DNA of 64,000 nucleotides from Candidatus Latescibacterota bacterium (GTDB lineage Bacteria; Latescibacterota; UBA2968). The notes below the pieces were generated by a model. The model saw nothing but the letters and a program-made list of their open reading frames with translations. It searched no databases and was not told where the DNA came from. Below are positions 2,919 to 14,584 of this stretch, piece after piece. The stretch covers positions 2,048,001 to 2,112,000 of the forward strand of contig OZ220741.1 in assembly GCA_965116885.1 (NCBI GenBank), given 5' to 3'. Positions within the stretch are counted from its first letter, which is position 1, and each line of letters starts with the position of its first letter. The position numbers and the translations under genes were made by a program.

Positions 2919-5345
2919 ATGTTATCAAACTATTTCACTATCGCATGCCGCAATTTGTGGTCGCACAAGCGCGATACGCTGATCAATTTGCTCAGTCTTA
3001 TTGTGGGGCTGTCGTGTTGTGTGATGGCGATTGTGATTATTTATTGCGAGATGAGCTATGACCGGTTTCATCCGGATGTGCATCGCATTTATCGGGTTTT
3101 GCGGGAGCGGGTGAGCAATGAGCAGACGCAGGTGCGGTGGCTGACTTCGGGGGCGCTCGCCCGGACACTTGAGGCGGAGATGCCCGAAGTTGAGTTGGCG
3201 TCCAAGAATCGCATTTATCCGGTTGTGGTGCGCTTTGAGGATCGAGAATTTACGCTGGCGCAGGGGCAGGTTGACGACCGATTTTTTGAGTTGTTTCATT
3301 TTCCTTTTGCTATTGGTGATGCCGATGTGCTTGAACAGCCGTATCGGGTTGCGATTACGGAGTCAGCGGCAGAGAAGTTGTTTGGCAAGGCCGATCCCAT
3401 AGGCAAGGTTATTACGATTCGCGAGCGGTATTACGGCGGCGATTATACGGTTGCCGCTGTTTTGCAGACGCCTCCAAAGTTTTCGTCCATTCAGTTTGAT
3501 TTGCTGCATTTTACCAATGGGCGAACAGTGGAGGCTGTTTTTGATTGGACGCAGTGGAAGGGGTTGGTGCAACAGGCGGGTATTGAGACTTTTGTGCGTT
3601 TGCGCGATGGGGTAAATGCGGGTGAATTTGAAGCAAAGATGTCGGGTGTTATTGAACGGCATATGGGCGCAGATGTGCGCCGGATTCTTTCGTTTCGCTT
3701 GCAGCCTCTTGCGCGGGTGCATCTGTATGGGGTTCGGGATTACAATTTGTCTTCGGGTGGCAATGTTCAGACGCTCTATCTTTTTGCGGCGATTGCGGTG
3801 CTGGTGCTGGCGATTGCGGCGATTAATTTTGTCAATCTCTCTACGGCGCGTTCGATGTACCGCGCGCGCGAGGTGGGGATGCGAAAGGTGGTTGGGGCGC
3901 GTCGCGGTCAGTTGGTTCAGCAGTTTTTGTGCGAGACGGTTTTGCTGGCGTTGCTGGCTGTGGTTATAGCCGTGCCTCTGGCGCGCGTCGCGTTGTCGGA
4001 AATCAGCGCGCAGACGGACGCGCATTACGCGCTTGACGCGCCGATGCTGTTCGTGCTCTTGCCGGGTCTTTTAGGGCTTGCCGTGTTTGTGGGGTTGATG
4101 GCGGGGGTATATCCGGCGTTTTATTTTTCGGGGTTTCGTCCGGCTGATGTGCTCAAGGGCGTCGCGTATTTGCCGGGTGCGCGGCTTCGGCAGGTTCTGG
4201 TTGTGGCGCAATTTGCCGTTGCTATTTTGCTTGTGATTGTTGCGGATGTTATTTATCGGCAATTGGACTTTATTCAGCACAAGGATCTCGGTTTTGACAA
4301 AGAGCATCTCGTTTTGCTGCCGATCTTTAAGCTGGATCGCCGGCTCAAGACCAATGATGATCCCTGGCTCGTGGCACAGTACAATGCTGTAAAGCAGGCG
4401 TTTTTGGTACATCCCAATGTTGTTTCGGTGTCTGCGTTTCGCTTTTTGCCCGGGCGTGATGGCGGTGGTTTTGTGCGGATTGTCAAGCCGGAAGGTCAGG
4501 ACCATACCGAGTGGCGAATGCCCGTGCAGGAGGCCGATGAAGATTTTTTTTCTACTTTCGGTGTGTCTATTATAGCTGGTCGCACGTTTTCACCCGGGGT
4601 TGAGCGCGATCGCACGCATGCGTATATTCTCAATGAGTCTGCTGTGCGCGCGCTTGGCTGGACGGTAGAGGATGCCGTGGGGCGGCGTTTTGGGCGGGCG
4701 CGTTCAGAAGAGGATGCCAAAGGTACTGTGATTGGCGTGGTTTCAGATTTTCACTACGCTTCTCTTCGACAACCGATTGGGCCAGCGGTTTTTGCTTATC
4801 GGCAGTGGTTTTACGATTATCTGGCGCTGCGGGTACGCGATTTTTCAGGGGTTCGACCTTTTCTCAAGGAGACCTGGGATACATTTATGCCAGCCGATAA
4901 GCCTTTTGAGTTTACATTTTTGGACGAGGAACTCGATGCGATTTATCGGGCGGAAAGAGATTTGGGACAGGCTGTTACCGCTTTTGCCGGGCTGGCTATT
5001 TTGCTGGCGTGTTTGGGGTTGTTCGGTTTGGCGGCTTTTACGGCTGAACGCCGCAGGCGCGAGATCGGTATTCGCAAGGTGCTCGGTGCGTCTGTTTCAA
5101 GTGTTGTTTTGTTGTTGTCCAAAGCGTTTTTGAAGCTGGTGCTTGTCGCCAATCTCATTGCCTGGCCCGTTGCCTATTATTTGACAAATACCTATTTGCA
5201 AAATTTTGCGTATCGCGCGTCCCTCAGTTTGTGGCCTTTTGTTTTTTCGGGTTTGCTCGCGCTCCTGATTGCGCTTTTGACCGTTGGTACGCAGGCGTTC
5301 AGGGTTGCGCATGCTAATCCCGTGGAAGTACTGAGGCATGAATAG
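2919..5345 (+). CDS. MacB/FtsX-family ABC transporter permease (duplicated architecture)
   Basis: 'INFVNLSTARS..RAREVGMRKVVGA' and 'ERRRREIGIRKVLGAS'; C-terminal 'ANPVEVLRHE'. Confidence 0.9.
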   Translation: MLSNYFTIACRNLWSHKRDTLINLLSLIVGLSCCVMAIVIIYCEMSYDRFHPDVHRIYRVLRERVSNEQTQVRWLTSGALARTLEAEMPEVELASKNRIYPVVVRFEDREFTLAQGQVDDRFFELFHFPFAIGDADVLEQPYRVAITESAAEKLFGKADPIGKVITIRERYYGGDYTVAAVLQTPPKFSSIQFDLLHFTNGRTVEAVFDWTQWKGLVQQAGIETFVRLRDGVNAGEFEAKMSGVIERHMGADVRRILSFRLQPLARVHLYGVRDYNLSSGGNVQTLYLFAAIAVLVLAIAAINFVNLSTARSMYRAREVGMRKVVGARRGQLVQQFLCETVLLALLAVVIAVPLARVALSEISAQTDAHYALDAPMLFVLLPGLLGLAVFVGLMAGVYPAFYFSGFRPADVLKGVAYLPGARLRQVLVVAQFAVAILLVIVADVIYRQLDFIQHKDLGFDKEHLVLLPIFKLDRRLKTNDDPWLVAQYNAVKQAFLVHPNVVSVSAFRFLPGRDGGGFVRIVKPEGQDHTEWRMPVQEADEDFFSTFGVSIIAGRTFSPGVERDRTHAYILNESAVRALGWTVEDAVGRRFGRARSEEDAKGTVIGVVSDFHYASLRQPIGPAVFAYRQWFYDYLALRVRDFSGVRPFLKETWDTFMPADKPFEFTFLDEELDAIYRAERDLGQAVTAFAGLAILLACLGLFGLAAFTAERRRREIGIRKVLGASVSSVVLLLSKAFLKLVLVANLIAWPVAYYLTNTYLQNFAYRASLSLWPFVFSGLLALLIALLTVGTQAFRVAHANPVEVLRHE

Positions 5346-5452
5346 GTGTGTAACAGGATTTAAGTCGCAGCACAATGCCAGTAATCCAGAGGAACTCGCG
5401 TCTTTCTGATACGTATAATATTGAAACTGATCACTACTACGGAGGTCCTCCC

Positions 5453-5872
5453 ATGTTCTTCACACTTCTCTTCATCACGCTCGTAGTCGCCGCTCTCGTG
5501 TCTTTTATCGCCGTGCGTGCGTTTAGCAGCGCGATTACCAGTATTCTTCATCGGCTTATTGATGATGCGATAGCAAGCGCGTGGGTGCGCTATATGAAGT
5601 TTGCGATTTTTGTGGTGGGTATTTCTGGCGGTGTGCGTGTTCGTTCGCTGGAGCGTTATATTTTGCCGCAGGAGCATTTCGATTCCGCAGGTAAATCCCG
5701 CGATATGCCGCCCTTTGAGCTGACTACCGAACGCTGGGTGCTCGAGATTTATCGCACGATTATCGAGTCCCTGCAATCTATCGCGTGGATGTTGCTCGTC
5801 TTTTTTATCGTGTCACTCGGTATGTACATTGTCGTGCGTATCTTTGAAATGCGACGAGGGACGAGCGAGTGA
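5453..5872 (+). CDS. Hypothetical membrane protein (3 predicted TM helices)
   Basis: GGAGG RBS before ATG 5453; three hydrophobic stretches. Confidence 0.7.
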   Translation: MFFTLLFITLVVAALVSFIAVRAFSSAITSILHRLIDDAIASAWVRYMKFAIFVVGISGGVRVRSLERYILPQEHFDSAGKSRDMPPFELTTERWVLEIYRTIIESLQSIAWMLLVFFIVSLGMYIVVRIFEMRRGTSE

Positions 5873-10082: not shown

Positions 10083-10970
10083 ATGATGGATTCTATTTAT
10101 GGGATTGTGCCGCCAGTGGTGACGCCGTTTCGGGAGGATGACTCGCTTGATGAGGGGGCGTTTCGTGCGGATATTCAGTATATGATTGAGACGGCGAAGG
10201 TGCATGGGTTGGCGGTGACGGGGAGTACGGGCGAGGGGCATACGCTCAGAGATGATGAGGTGAGGCAGTTGACGCAATGGGCCGTGGAGGAAGCCGATGG
10301 GCGAGTGCCTGTGATTACGGGGATTATTACGGACAGTACGAAGTCGGCAATTGAGCGCGGGAAGGCTGTGGCCGATTTGGGTCCGGTGGCGTTGCAGGTG
10401 ACGCCGGTGCATTATTTGTTTCGGCCAGACGATGATGCGATGGTCAGGCATTTTGAGGCGTTGTGTGAGGGGACGGGGTTGCCGGTGATGATTTACAATG
10501 TGGTGCCGTGGACGTATTTGTCGCCGGAGTTGTTGACGCGGATTATTGACGAGGTGGAGGGTGTGGTGGGGGTGAAGCAGAGTGCGGGAGATATGAAGTT
10601 GCTGGCTGATTTGTTGTTGATGGCCGGAGATCGAGCGCGGATTATGACTGCGGTAGATGCGTTGTTGTATCCGTCATTTGTTTTGGGTGCACACGGTGCG
10701 ATTGCGGCGATTTTGACGGCGGTGCCCGAGTTGTGTGTGGCGGTGTGGGATGCGTGTCGTGCAGGTGATCATAAAAAGGCGTTGGATTTACACGAGAAGT
10801 TGCTGCCGATTTGGAATGCGATTTTTGATGATAATTTGCCCGCAAATACCAAGTATGCGATGAAGCTACAGGGGCGCGATGGGGGTGTGCCGCGCCCGCC
10901 AATGCCACCGTCGTCTGCCGAGCAGGAGGGGCAGGTTCAGGCGGCATTGGAGAATGCAGGTGTGGTTTAA
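10083..10970 (+). CDS. DapA/NanA-family (dihydrodipicolinate synthase-like) aldolase
   Basis: 'VVTPF', 'GSTGEG', 'MIYN', Schiff-base Lys in 'VGVKQS'. Confidence 0.85.
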   Translation: MMDSIYGIVPPVVTPFREDDSLDEGAFRADIQYMIETAKVHGLAVTGSTGEGHTLRDDEVRQLTQWAVEEADGRVPVITGIITDSTKSAIERGKAVADLGPVALQVTPVHYLFRPDDDAMVRHFEALCEGTGLPVMIYNVVPWTYLSPELLTRIIDEVEGVVGVKQSAGDMKLLADLLLMAGDRARIMTAVDALLYPSFVLGAHGAIAAILTAVPELCVAVWDACRAGDHKKALDLHEKLLPIWNAIFDDNLPANTKYAMKLQGRDGGVPRPPMPPSSAEQEGQVQAALENAGVV

Positions 10971-12343
10971 TCTTTGGACTTCATCCGGATTGGCATTAAT
11001 AATGCCAGCCATTCCGCATTCAGAGGCGTGCGCAAGATGATCGCTTTTCCCTGTTCTCTAAATTCCATTGTGATTTCATCGCTGTCTTCAATATCCAGCG
11101 CATGCAGGACCTGTTTTAGATACGCGAAGTTCACGGCGAACCTGAGTGTGTCTTCTGATGGTGTTTCAAATTTGGCATTGAGGGGGACCTGAAATATCCA
11201 ATCCGCAATGCCTCCTGGCGAGTCGTTATCTTTCGCGTCGTGGAGATATTGGAATTTGCCATTGTCTTCTCGAGCATATCCCGTATCTCGGGATGTGAGA
11301 AAGGTTATGGTTTGGGTCAGTGGCGAGAGGTGTAGATCTACCCGGGGGCGATATTGCCAGGTATCTGATTCTGGATGCCGCGCTTCCATGAAGTCTTGTA
11401 GTAAGTTCAGGGCGTGTGCTAGAAGAGCCGAGGGGATGGAAACGCGCATTGAGGGATCTTCTTGTGGGATGACCTGTTCGTATTTGACATAAGGACCTTC
11501 GATCAGGGGTACCTGAAGGGTTGTGCCGTTGCTCTGGATTTCTGCGGTCTCTTCCGCAATTTTCAATGTGGCCTGTTCGGGGAGTTGGATGTCTGACCAG
11601 GGTCCGAGGACAATGGGTGCGGCCAATTCCGAGAGGCTTTGCAATGTGCGAATGATCATGATATGTCCGTTGGTCGCAGTCGCGCGACCGCCTGTGTCGA
11701 GACATACGCCCTGCAAGATCGGGCGTTTTTCATCGTCGCTTACAAAACCAATTACTTTTTTGAGCGCGTCCATGTCCGCGCGGTCCAGTTCAGTTGTTTG
11801 TGTTTGAATATCCGACATTTTGTGTAGCTCTCCTTTTAATTTGAGACGCGCACGCCTCAGGCGCCCGCGCACGGTTTCTACCGTGAGGTTCAGGAGGTCG
11901 GCTGTTTCCGCGTAAGAATACCCTTTGAAATAGTGGTGGGCGATTACCTGGCGATGTTCAGCCGATAGGATGCGTAGCGCGGCTCGTACAACATGTTTGA
12001 TTTCTTCTTCTGTGTGCGCTGCAGGTTCTGGATAAAATGTTTCTTCCAGTCGCAATTGCACGGCTCGACGGCGATGATGGGAGTTGACGGCGTTGCGTAC
12101 GATGCTGTGTAACCAGGGTCTAAATCGGTCGGGTTTGCGAAGTTGATGCAGATTTTCGTACGCTTTGATAAATACGATTTGGACCAGGTCTTCTACGTCG
12201 TCAACCAATCGCACAGATTGGGCAATTTGGGCATACACATATCGCGAATAGCGTTGCACCAGAACTGCGAATGCTTTGCGGTCGCCGTCCAGAATTCTGG
12301 CGATGAGCGCGCTGTCTTCAATGTGTTCCACGAATTGCTCCAA
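10967..12343 (-). CDS. ECF sigma factor with C-terminal DNA polymerase III beta-clamp-like extension (start TTG 12343 or GTG 12331)
   Basis: N-terminal sigma2 ('AFAVLVQRY', 'EDLVQIVFIKAY', 'FRPWLHSIVRN') and sigma4 ('GYSYAETA..L..TVRGRLRRAR'); C-terminal DnaN-like motifs 'SDDEKRPILQGV', 'ATNGH', 'LIEGPYVKYEQVIP', 'VNFAYL', 'LLMPIR'. Confidence 0.85.
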   Translation of the reverse strand: MEQFVEHIEDSALIARILDGDRKAFAVLVQRYSRYVYAQIAQSVRLVDDVEDLVQIVFIKAYENLHQLRKPDRFRPWLHSIVRNAVNSHHRRRAVQLRLEETFYPEPAAHTEEEIKHVVRAALRILSAEHRQVIAHHYFKGYSYAETADLLNLTVETVRGRLRRARLKLKGELHKMSDIQTQTTELDRADMDALKKVIGFVSDDEKRPILQGVCLDTGGRATATNGHIMIIRTLQSLSELAAPIVLGPWSDIQLPEQATLKIAEETAEIQSNGTTLQVPLIEGPYVKYEQVIPQEDPSMRVSIPSALLAHALNLLQDFMEARHPESDTWQYRPRVDLHLSPLTQTITFLTSRDTGYAREDNGKFQYLHDAKDNDSPGGIADWIFQVPLNAKFETPSEDTLRFAVNFAYLKQVLHALDIEDSDEITMEFREQGKAIILRTPLNAEWLALLMPIRMKSKD

Positions 12344-12374
12344 GAGAAATCAATCCACGCGTGTTTAAATAAAA

Positions 12375-12400
12375 GACGAGTCTGTATCCCGAAAGTGTCG
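12375..12400 (-). promoter_or_regulatory. Putative ECF-type autoregulatory promoter (CGACAC-N16-CGTC)
   Basis: Minus strand CGACAC tttcgggatacagact CGTC, between the upstream terminator and the ECF start; spacing matches the ECF pattern TGAAAC-N16-CGTn. Confidence 0.45.
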
Positions 12401-12409
12401 TATGGATAT

Positions 12410-12441
12410 AAAAAAAGCCCCGGATTGTTCCGAGGCTTTTT
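12410..12441. terminator. Intrinsic terminator, potentially bidirectional
   Basis: AAAAAAAGCCCCGGATTGTTCCGAGGCTTTTT: hairpin flanked by A and T tracts, just after the PhyH stop at 12456. Confidence 0.7.
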
Positions 12442-12455
12442 GATTTTGGGGACTT

Positions 12456-13387: not shown

Positions 13388-13708
13388 ATGCTCGTGTTGA
13401 CAACCCCCAATATTGAAGGGAAAACTATTGATAGCTATCAGGGCATTGTGACGGGTGAAGCTATTTTGGGTGCCAATTTTTTTAAGGATATCTTTGCGAG
13501 TCTCCGCGATATTGTCGGCGGGCGTTCAGCCGCGTATGAGTCAGAACTCCGCAGAGCCAAAGATCTCGCCATTGAGGAAATGGTCGAACAGGCACGCGGT
13601 ATGGGCGCCAATGCCGTCATTGGCGTGGATCTCGACTACGATACGGTTGGCGAGGGCAGTATGCTTATGGTCAGTGCCAGTGGCACGGCTGTTACTTATC
13701 GGAATTGA
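13388..13708 (+). CDS. ybjQ: YbjQ/UPF0145 family protein
   Basis: '[31 protein letters not shown]', '[12 protein letters not shown]', '[11 protein letters not shown]'; AAGGAGG RBS. Confidence 0.9.
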
Positions 13709-14584
13709 GACGTTCGTTATTTTGTATTGTGTTTTGGAAAATTTCGATTCTTTCACCACGGTTTGCGATTCGTAAATGGATCCGCTTCGGAGTGCGCCCG
13801 GCCAGGGCATTCTCACGGGTACGGCTTCCACGCGCGGGATGTTGGTCGGTTCGCCGCGCACGATTGTTTCATTGAACAAATCCCAGTTGTTCAGGCCCGA
13901 TAGGGGATATGCATCGATCGCGCAGTATTGAAATAGGAGCAGTCGGCGGGGTTTGTCGGATGTATTGGATACTGATCCGTGTAGCATGCGCACGTGATGG
14001 ATTGTGATGCCGCCTGCTTTTACCATTACGGGCACGGCGCCTTTGTCGCTAAAGGTCGAGTCGGTTACGGCGCCGCAGAAATGGCCGTCGAGGTGATGGT
14101 CGTAAATTGGCCCTTTGTGTGAGCCGGGAATGACGAGCAAGGGGCCGTTTTCTTCTGTCATGTCGTCGAGTACTATGCCCACGGCGAGCAAGTCGTCGTT
14201 GCTATGGGGATAAAATGCCCAGTCCTGATGCCACTCGACCGGGCTGCCGTAGCCGGGTTGTTTCATGTTGAGCTTGTTGCCATTGCACCGCAGGCCGTAT
14301 CCGATCAATTGCGATACGATTCCCAAAATTTTCTCGTGATGCAGGGTCTTGCGATATACTTCATGTAGCAAAATCGGACTTTTTAAGCGTCTCAGTTTTG
14401 GGTTTTCGGGTGTGTGTCCGGGTTCGAGGTCGAATGCTTCGGTGTGATCGGTGACCTCCCGCGATTTTTCCACATATTCATCGGTTATCCGCCGCAGGTC
14501 GTTGACTTCGTCTTCACTGAGCACGTTCTCCACACCGAGATATCCGTGTTCGTGGTAAAACGCAATTTGTTCTTGAGTGAGCAT
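13541..14584 (-). CDS. PhyH-family dioxygenase (C-terminus reads through antisense into ybjQ)
   Basis: '[15 protein letters not shown]', 'WHQDWAFYP', 'IPGSHKG', 'LHGS', 'RRLL'. Confidence 0.8.

Follow-up and report, generated by a model that had tools for sequence, protein, structure and literature searches.

A β-clamp-derived module fused to an ECF sigma factor in Candidatus Latescibacterota as a candidate built-in regulator

The DNA analyzed here is a 64,000-nt stretch (the window) of a Candidatus Latescibacterota genome (contig OZ220741.1, positions 2,048,001 to 2,112,000), and the gene of interest lies on its minus strand, where a 458-aa open reading frame (ORF; 10967..12343, TTG start, no internal stops) joins a sigma factor of the extracytoplasmic function (ECF) type to a module resembling two domains of the β sliding clamp, DnaN. 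An initial annotation of the sequence had proposed one uninterrupted 458-aa ORF without giving its strand, and the frame holds over its whole length. Since homologues begin with MEQIED and a GGAG lies 6 nt 5´ of a GTG codon, the true start of this sigma-clamp gene is probably the GTG at 12331 (probable ribosome binding site and start, 12329..12341, minus; GGAG 12338-12341, 6-nt spacer, GTG 12329-12331). The probable coding sequence (10967-12331, minus, GTG start) gives a protein of 454 aa, matching the database protein P0002, which also has 454 aa and is 99% identical to the window protein; residue numbers here follow the 458-aa ORF. All of the sequence motifs that had been quoted as hallmarks of DnaN domains II and III were found in the window protein in the order claimed: SDDEKRPILQGV at residues 202-213, ATNGH at 223-227, LIEGPYVKYEQVIP at 280-293, NFAYLKQVL at 405-413 and LLMPIR at 448-453. 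We compared 29 genes, comprising that of the window and 28 of the homologous loci described below (L017 was dropped, its frame being interrupted, and L006 and L026 were left out). None of the 29 has a stop codon between the two parts, and because the same frame is open in these genes from independent assemblies, we rejected a mis-joined or otherwise artefactual assembly as the source of the fusion.

Residues 1-175 of the window protein correspond to an ECF sigma factor with regions sigma2 and sigma4, as initially annotated, and both regions were matched at nearly full profile length. Sigma-70 region 2 (12062..12262, minus, aa 28-94) matched PF04542 (Sigma70_r2) at 5.9e-13 over profile positions 1-69 of 71, and region 4 (11834..11989, minus, aa 119-170) matched PF08281 at 2.4e-12 and PF04545 at 8.5e-11, the PF08281 (Sigma70_r4_2) match covering aa 119-169 and profile positions 4-54 of 54. 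The NCBIfam model for sigma70-ECF proteins, TIGR02937, scored 92.6 bits against a cut-off of 42.9. No match to region 1.1 or region 3 was returned by the Pfam/NCBIfam scan, and of 107 NCBIfam models the best 25 include no subgroup or equivalog model that scored above its cut-off, the top such model, PRK12518, reaching 87.8 bits against 208. The closest solved structures to the sigma part are ECF sigma factors of the RpoE, SigH, SigW and CnrH types.

The DnaN signal in the remainder of the protein was below threshold when the single sequence was compared with Pfam (PF02768, residues 398-453, 16.2 bits, E = 0.0097; PF02767, 14.9 bits, E = 0.034; cut-off 27), and a single-sequence search of the PDB gave 7ybd at E = 3.5e-4. 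A profile built from 20 fused homologues of 36-91% identity (alignment A1) matched dozens of solved β clamps in the PDB at E values from 5.7e-14 to 1e-8 over profile positions ~180-320. AlphaFold2 models were obtained with this alignment (pLDDT 80.2, pTM 0.58) and with a second one of 49 rows (A2; pLDDT 90.9, pTM 0.70). Foldseek with the first model returned β clamps at E values of 3e-15 and below, and in VIA-align superpositions on β clamps the model gave Z scores of 20-23 with a root-mean-square deviation of 2.3-2.7 Å over ~233 residues, model residues 178-454 falling on residues 122-366 of Escherichia coli β, that is, on domains II and III. Domain I was not detected: the window protein has no PF00712 match, and the model aligns only from E. 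coli β residue 122. These comparisons bear out the proposal that clamp domains II and III, without domain I, are fused in frame to the sigma factor, and the C-terminal region does model as a clamp fold. From the superposition and an alignment with E. coli DnaN, the domain-II-like half occupies 11474..11812 (minus, aa 178-290) and the domain-III-like half 10982..11473 (minus, aa 291-454; PF02768), the latter ending in LLMPIRM, the equivalent of the cleft-forming C-terminus of β. The best fold matches include clamp complexes with a phage protein or with natural products (7evp, 8cix, 8ciz). In the ESM Atlas the best scores, 0.83-0.85 and thus under the 0.9 level, were to short clusters of bacterial and phage origin named 'putative DNA polymerase III beta', which we treat as leads only.

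While the fold and the binding-cleft residues of a clamp are retained, the module has diverged from a working clamp in several respects that the initial annotation did not note. These emerged from an alignment (A3) of the family to the DnaNs of E. coli, of the window genome and of other sources. Domain II of the module has a single long channel helix, with a short loop bearing a conserved LGPW in place of the second one, and DSSP assigns no helix at residues 247-257 in either AlphaFold2 model. Domain III contains two insertions, at 11342..11386 (minus, aa ~320-334), with conserved R322-H323-P324, Y331 and P333, and at 11171..11263 (minus, aa ~361-391), which contains W382 and is flanked by G355-Y356. 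Both insertions are absent from E. coli DnaN, from the genome's own DnaN and from a second type of ECF-clamp fusion found in Candidatus Poribacteria (see below), and R322, H323, P324, Y331, P333, G355, Y356 and W382 are the best-conserved residues of the whole family (H323 in 46/49 members; top-residue share 0.92 for Y331, 0.98 for G355, 0.98 for W382 and 0.94 for Y356). The family has D/E and F/H/Y at the positions aligned with I272 and L273 of E. coli β, which we take to be key residues of the dimer interface. Compared with a β clamp, then, the module has two domains rather than three, has lost one channel helix, has gained two insertions in domain III and scores below the Pfam cut-offs, although stretches such as LIEGPYV.YEQVIP and LLMP.R are nearly identical to those of the genome's own DnaN, with which the module shares 27% identity overall. 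The genome also has a canonical dnaN at another site, where recF follows it, and the fusion gene is not in a dnaA/dnaN/recF setting.

The premise that a partner-binding pocket survives in the module is supported by the alignment, in which cleft residues are conserved well above the domain average. Against a mean top-residue share of 0.48 across the whole clamp-like domain (49 members), the position of E. coli T172 is T in 40/49 members, that of G174 is G in 46/49, that of N320 is N in 44/49 and that of Y323 is Y or F in 42/49, these being positions for which a role in the cleft is presumed. Similarly, the L177 position is L or M in 44 of the 49, V247 is V in 41, M362 is M in 43, P363 is P in 47 and R365 is R in 40. 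The P242 position is V in the family, as it also is in the genome's own DnaN, and the window equivalents of M362 and P363 are M450 and P451. For E. coli β, one study gives L177, P242, V247 and M362 as contacts of the δ subunit, P363, M364 and L366 as cleft residues and the last five residues as part of the cleft (PMC2685083), and another lists V247, M362, P363 and P242 as cleft residues (PMC7261172).

The same architecture was found across many genomes. A first protein search returned 52 proteins, ~40 of which were 440-504 aa in length and shared it, down to 38% identity. An exhaustive search with the C-terminal 282 residues gave 184 cluster representatives at E ≤ 1e-3, and among the 51 of these that were scanned with Pfam, 30 had sigma-70 domains N-terminal to the clamp match (24 of 403-494 aa and 6 shorter fragments), 15 were sigma-less (261-348 aa, one with a SEC-C motif) and 6 were ordinary three-domain DnaNs. 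Species-representative genomes yielded 31 loci (L003-L033), mostly labelled Candidatus Latescibacterota and some Gemmatimonadota. For the 168 genomes of the phylum, we counted only matches spanning query residues ≤30 to ≥429, since the raw tally of 164/168 was inflated by ordinary ECF paralogues. By this measure 62 of the 168 genomes carry a near-full-length match, all of them in one class, with partial matches in 7 more. The 62 are distributed as 15/31 genomes in the group that includes the window genome (f1), 18/22 in f2, 1/3 in f3 and 28/76 in f4; the groups belonging to other classes (f5-f14) had none (0/36). Sequencing runs with near-identical sequence are metagenomes or metatranscriptomes labelled as sponge, apart from one labelled as coral. 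Sponge metatranscriptome libraries from two studies (X1 and X2 from one, X5 from the second) contain short pieces of the gene as assembled contigs, though contigs alone are no proof of transcription, and the same caution applies to a 3.8 kb contig from a relative in an RNA library of a third study (X9), which has 158 differing letters over a 2154-base piece.

The region 5´ of the gene has a layout that is kept across clades sharing no neighboring genes. An intrinsic-terminator-like hairpin with a T-run (12405..12441, minus) closes the upstream PhyH gene; a simple terminator scan did not flag this hairpin, which was detected by RNA folding (12398-12445, minus; -18.9 kcal/mol, z = -5.0, none of 200 shuffles as good). 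Downstream of the hairpin, and upstream of the fusion gene, is an ECF-type promoter-like motif, GACACTTT-N13-CGTCT (12374..12399, minus). We examined 30 upstream regions, those of the window gene and of L003-L033 except L006 and L026 (where the match was off the standard locus position or cut), and found A[CT]ACTTT, exactly 13 bases and N[AG]TC, preceded by a T-run, in 29 of the 30, L030 being the sole exception, against 0.03 expected from shuffles. ECF promoters have an AAC-type -35 and a CGT-type -10 element and often precede the sigma factor's own gene. The spacing and the AC and CGTC-like boxes are of this kind, and we read 12374-12399 as a candidate autoregulatory promoter.

A second conserved signal lies at the junction of the two domains. 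An internal Shine-Dalgarno-like AGGAG (11830-11834) precedes the ATG of Met176 (11816-11818) with an 11-nt spacer (11816..11834, minus), and AGGAG is found 9-11 nt before the junction ATG in 29/29 genes, Met176 itself being present in 37/40 fused proteins. The amino acids encoded across AGGAG vary by lineage (K-G-E, K-G-A, K/R-E-E, K/R-K-E) while the nucleotides are kept. Among the 13 genes of one clade (clade b), a single codon is kept in only 25 of the 167 columns where a degenerate residue is invariant, and the AAG (Lys) and GAG (Glu) codons of AGGAG are invariant in 13/13, although gene-wide AAG accounts for 63% of Lys and GAG for 57% of Glu codons; these values are suggestive of codon-level constraint on AGGAG, the sequences being related and the comparison not a proper test. 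In addition, the sigma-less database proteins that we inspected (P0042, P0055, P0059 and P0081) begin at the junction Met, and a quick tree, built from domains II-III of 55 hand-picked rows with SH-aLRT support and with its careful search left unfinished, places sigma-less forms here and there among the fused ones. We consider the site a candidate internal start, from which a free clamp-like module may be made from the same gene, and/or a strong site that gene callers may pick on fragments.

The sigma part has a conserved feature of its own in the linker between sigma2 and sigma4, the motif V95-Q96-L-R-L-E-E-x-F (12035..12061, minus). Its pattern in the family is V95-Q96-[LIVM]-[REQ]-[LFW]-[EQ]-[ED]-x-[LF]; in 40 fused proteins Q96 is present in all 40, V95 in 31 and L, F or W at position 99 in 38. 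The Q-L-x-L core of the window linker resembles the clamp-binding motif, given as QL[SD]LF in PMC2685083. PMC8999054 describes a contact between the C-terminal extension of ECF41 and the linker, and docking of the linker motif into the retained cleft, which is speculation by analogy, would parallel that contact.

The reading that we favor, and hold tentatively at somewhat less than an even chance, is that the gene encodes an autoregulated ECF sigma factor in which the clamp-derived module is a built-in, cleft-based regulator replacing an anti-sigma factor, with the free module as a second product. The sigma factor would transcribe its own gene from the 12374-12399 promoter. The module would no longer encircle DNA and would instead regulate the attached sigma factor in the place of an anti-sigma factor, in the manner of the extensions of ECF41, ECF42 and ECF238. 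Its retained cleft would bind the Q-L-x-L motif in the linker of the attached sigma factor or else a peptide resembling a clamp-binding motif in a partner protein, and free module translated from Met176 would tune the system. The sensing role put forward in the initial annotation, for clamp-binding peptides, antibiotics, toxins or replication stress, is hypothetical. We count in favor of this model the full-length region 2 and region 4 core, the clamp fold, the conserved fusion, the kept cleft and lost ring features, the autonomous promoter-bearing unit, the lack of an anti-sigma neighbor, the invariant Q96 and the internal start signal. With regard to the neighbors, no anti-sigma Pfam family was found near the fusion gene in the window or in three other clades. 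Two studies report that anti-sigma factors are usually missing for ECF groups with C-terminal extensions, in which the extension itself touches the core or the linker (PMC7826278, PMC8999054). The window protein is like these groups in having a sigma2-sigma4 core with an extension of more than 50 aa (here 280 aa), no anti-sigma gene nearby, a conserved sigma2-sigma4 linker motif and a likely autoregulated single-gene organization, and differs from them in that the extension is a two-domain β-clamp module.

Several observations weigh against this model. The cleft motifs are also the most conserved ones in DnaN generally, so that their retention may be partly structural. The linker has Glu at the position of the final Phe (the second hydrophobic position) of the clamp-binding motif, and AlphaFold2 models it as a plain helical continuation of sigma2 (residues 91-100, pLDDT 83; residues 101-110, pLDDT 52) and gives no contacts between the domains. 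The strict promoter motif occurs once in the 5.56 Mb genome, at the gene itself, with no second promoter, and two looser patterns have 26 matches each, about the expectation from base composition (roughly 30-40). No convincing second site was shared among five other genomes: a site ~3.5 kb away in two related genomes was rejected because it lies inside and antisense to a DegT-like gene, where coding-sequence conservation is the likely cause, and the other extra matches in the five were identical sequence in several copies. No regulon therefore emerges from these motif searches, and any sigma function beyond autoregulation is hypothetical. Lastly, the gene is conserved but dispensable and has been lost repeatedly within the genus of the window genome: 15 of the 21 genomes of this genus carry it, four complete or near-complete ones lack it, and another has a deletion remnant (G090:C1:4852481-4852885) in which residues 4-87 and 401-456 adjoin at ~90% identity.

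A distinct set of ECF-clamp fusions came to light through P0044, a 589-aa match from the first protein search that has an ECF core followed by all three DnaN domains. A search with its clamp part returned 516 proteins at E ≤ 1e-3; among the best 120 of these, 118 have sigma region 4 with all three DnaN domains (~517-591 aa) and 2 have DnaN domains only. This family of ~576-aa proteins (P0044, P0201-P0319) is abundant in metagenomes, and the sources call some members 'DNA polymerase III subunit beta [Candidatus Poribacteria bacterium]'. At the two full loci that we found (L082:1376-3106 and L083:7001-8716), the fusion gene is surrounded by ABC exporter genes, with neither dnaA nor recF next to it. 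As in the window family, an ECF is in frame with a clamp and an internal GGAGG or GGAG precedes, here by 7-8 nt, the ATG opening the clamp part; the Poribacteria-type fusions differ in keeping domain I, lacking the two domain III insertions and adjoining ABC exporters. Separate origins seem likely for the two kinds of fusion, because in the quick tree the Poribacteria-type clamps form their own clade among DnaNs (support 100) while the two-domain family is a separate group (100), and BLASTP of the Poribacteria-type clamp part against the window module gave no significant match. The second locus also contains, 3.3 kb downstream of its ECF-DnaN gene and again among ABC exporter genes, a 408-aa fusion of an ECF sigma factor (regions 2 and 4) to the GTPase domain of FtsZ/tubulin (L083:12018-13244, plus; a metagenome contig with Poribacteria-like genes), with a Shine-Dalgarno-like stretch and ATG at the domain junction. 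All 120 of the best matches to this protein have the same architecture, several being named 'sigma-70 family RNA polymerase sigma factor [Candidatus Poribacteria bacterium]'. In the window genome we found a single FtsZ-family match and no ECF-FtsZ fusion. On the short contig of the first locus, a fragment with a Cas12f1-like/TnpB TNB domain (L082:224-646, plus) lies just upstream of the sigma-DnaN gene.

These relatives bear on the first alternative, that the module is an integrated decoy sensor capturing agents that attack the clamp cleft, such as phage proteins, toxins or natural products, and thereby frees or activates the sigma factor for a protective response, for example efflux. Conservation of the cleft residues while ring features were lost would suit such a role, as would the Poribacteria fusions to full DnaN and, at the same locus, to an FtsZ GTPase domain, with ABC exporters adjoining at both loci; the solved clamps with a phage protein or natural products mentioned above show that such agents exist, and the organisms are sponge-associated by their run labels. 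The case is wholly inferential, however: the window-clade genes are not beside exporters or defense genes, no regulon was found, and with its insertions beside the cleft the module mimics a clamp imperfectly. We regard this explanation as unlikely, and consider similarly improbable its extended form, in which sponge-associated ECF sigma factors would carry decoy copies of essential hub proteins (a cut-down clamp in Latescibacterota, a full clamp and an FtsZ GTPase domain in Candidatus Poribacteria) and the free copy from the internal start would set the threshold.

We give no better chance to a second alternative, in which the sigma factor would be coupled to DNA or the replisome, the module forming a ring of three two-domain protomers, perhaps with the free module, or docking on the native clamp or clamp loader. 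A precedent is phage T4 late transcription, which involves the gp45 clamp, the sigma-like factor gp55 and gp33. As in our family, a sigma-family protein is there functionally coupled to a clamp of two-domain protomers, but the T4 coupling is non-covalent and uses a loaded trimeric ring, with late transcription tied to replication, and nothing in the window family shows ring formation or DNA loading. The fold does have the cleft used by clamp-loader δ and by polymerases, trimeric rings of two-domain protomers are known from other systems, untagged protomers could come from the internal start, and the Poribacteria-type fusion retains all three domains. Against coupling of this kind stand the absence of domain I, the single remaining channel helix in domain II, where a clamp has two, the D/E and F/H/Y residues at the presumed interface positions, the insertions in domain III and the grouping of the module apart from all DnaNs in the quick tree. 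A homotrimer prediction (three copies of residues 178-458, 49-row alignment) scored 0.14 against a mark of 0.42 and counts neither way.

Still more doubtful is a third alternative, that the frame serves to make two proteins, a free sigma-like product and a clamp-like protein starting at Met176 that acts in trans, in an anti-sigma-like manner or otherwise, so that the fusion is incidental. The conserved AGGAG-ATG with its suggested codon-level constraint and the scattered sigma-less proteins, insofar as they start at the junction Met, fit this explanation, but many of these proteins may reflect gene-caller starts on fragments, and releasing a free sigma factor would need proteolysis. Because no stop separates the parts in any of the 29 genes, down to ~36% identity, the fused product itself appears to be under selection. 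The remaining alternative, that the clamp part is an inert appendage, stabilizing or vestigial, and that only the transcription of its gene controls the sigma factor, we find equally hard to credit: the lack of an identified ligand, partner or regulon and the repeated loss within the genus would fit, but the 280-residue module persists from 93% to ~25% identity with conserved surface motifs (RHP, GY, W382 and the cleft residues), and the invariant linker Gln co-occurs with it.

With respect to other features of the locus, an ACGCG(T) element (12357..12362, minus) lies ~12-20 nt downstream of the -10-like box and was recognized by visual inspection in every clade; it may belong to the leader or serve as an operator to which a different regulator binds. 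A TAT-rich stretch precedes it. In the window clade the neighbors encode sulfatases and PhyH dioxygenases, and a DHDPS-family gene runs convergently to the fusion gene and overlaps its stop codon by 4 nt. On the plus strand of the window, a 106-aa ORF of the YbjQ_1 family (13388-13708, E = 5e-40) overlaps the 3´ part of the PhyH ORF (13541-14584, minus), and the PhyH gene is probably shorter than this longest ORF, being ~288 aa at homologous loci. Clade b has other neighbors, namely a DegT aminotransferase, an unknown protein of ~691 aa, a UMPH-1 nucleotidase and HU. In this clade a protein of 691-710 aa with no Pfam match is encoded directly upstream of the fusion gene on the same strand (L020-L033, ~3744-5819, plus), and the genes for HU and the UMPH-1-type pyrimidine 5´-nucleotidase lie downstream on the opposite strand. 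The neighbors differ again in L016-L019, L016 having a ClpP gene and a second ECF sigma gene directly upstream, and no neighbor is common to all clades. Elsewhere in the phylum, many further ECF-like matches are part of open frames 600-1776 aa long (for example G038:C8, G037:C47 and G097), and long C-terminal extensions on ECF sigma factors seem to be common in this phylum.

The initial annotation knew of no characterized ECF-DnaN fusion, and our searches agree: full-text searches combining ECF or sigma factors with sliding clamp, DnaN-like or Poribacteria gave no paper on an ECF-clamp or ECF-FtsZ fusion, nor did the searchable papers discuss a link between sigma factors and such hub proteins. 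Clamp, DnaN and polymerase III are likewise absent as extension types from the main text of PMC7826278 and PMC8999054 and from part of one supplement of PMC7826278, whose domain tables may lie outside that part. By these searches the ECF-clamp fusion is undescribed in print, and it may well represent a novel mode of sigma-factor control. Current names hide these proteins, those of the Poribacteria type being called 'DNA polymerase III subunit beta' and those of the window family 'sigma-70 family' or 'hypothetical'.

ECF sigma factors with built-in regulatory extensions amount to 'one-component systems' of transcription initiation. Few types of extension are on record (SnoaL-like, TPR, Cys-rich and WD40 among them), and a clamp-derived one would add a new type. 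Because the cleft that receives clamp-binding motifs is structurally very well understood, the proposed mechanism is directly testable with existing peptides and inhibitors. If a decoy or tethering role were true, the fusion could be more than an ECF sigma factor with a regulatory extension. A clamp appears to have been joined to an ECF sigma factor twice independently and FtsZ once, each time with an internal start signal, and this pattern may point to a general logic by which alternative sigma factors are linked to the hub proteins of replication and division.

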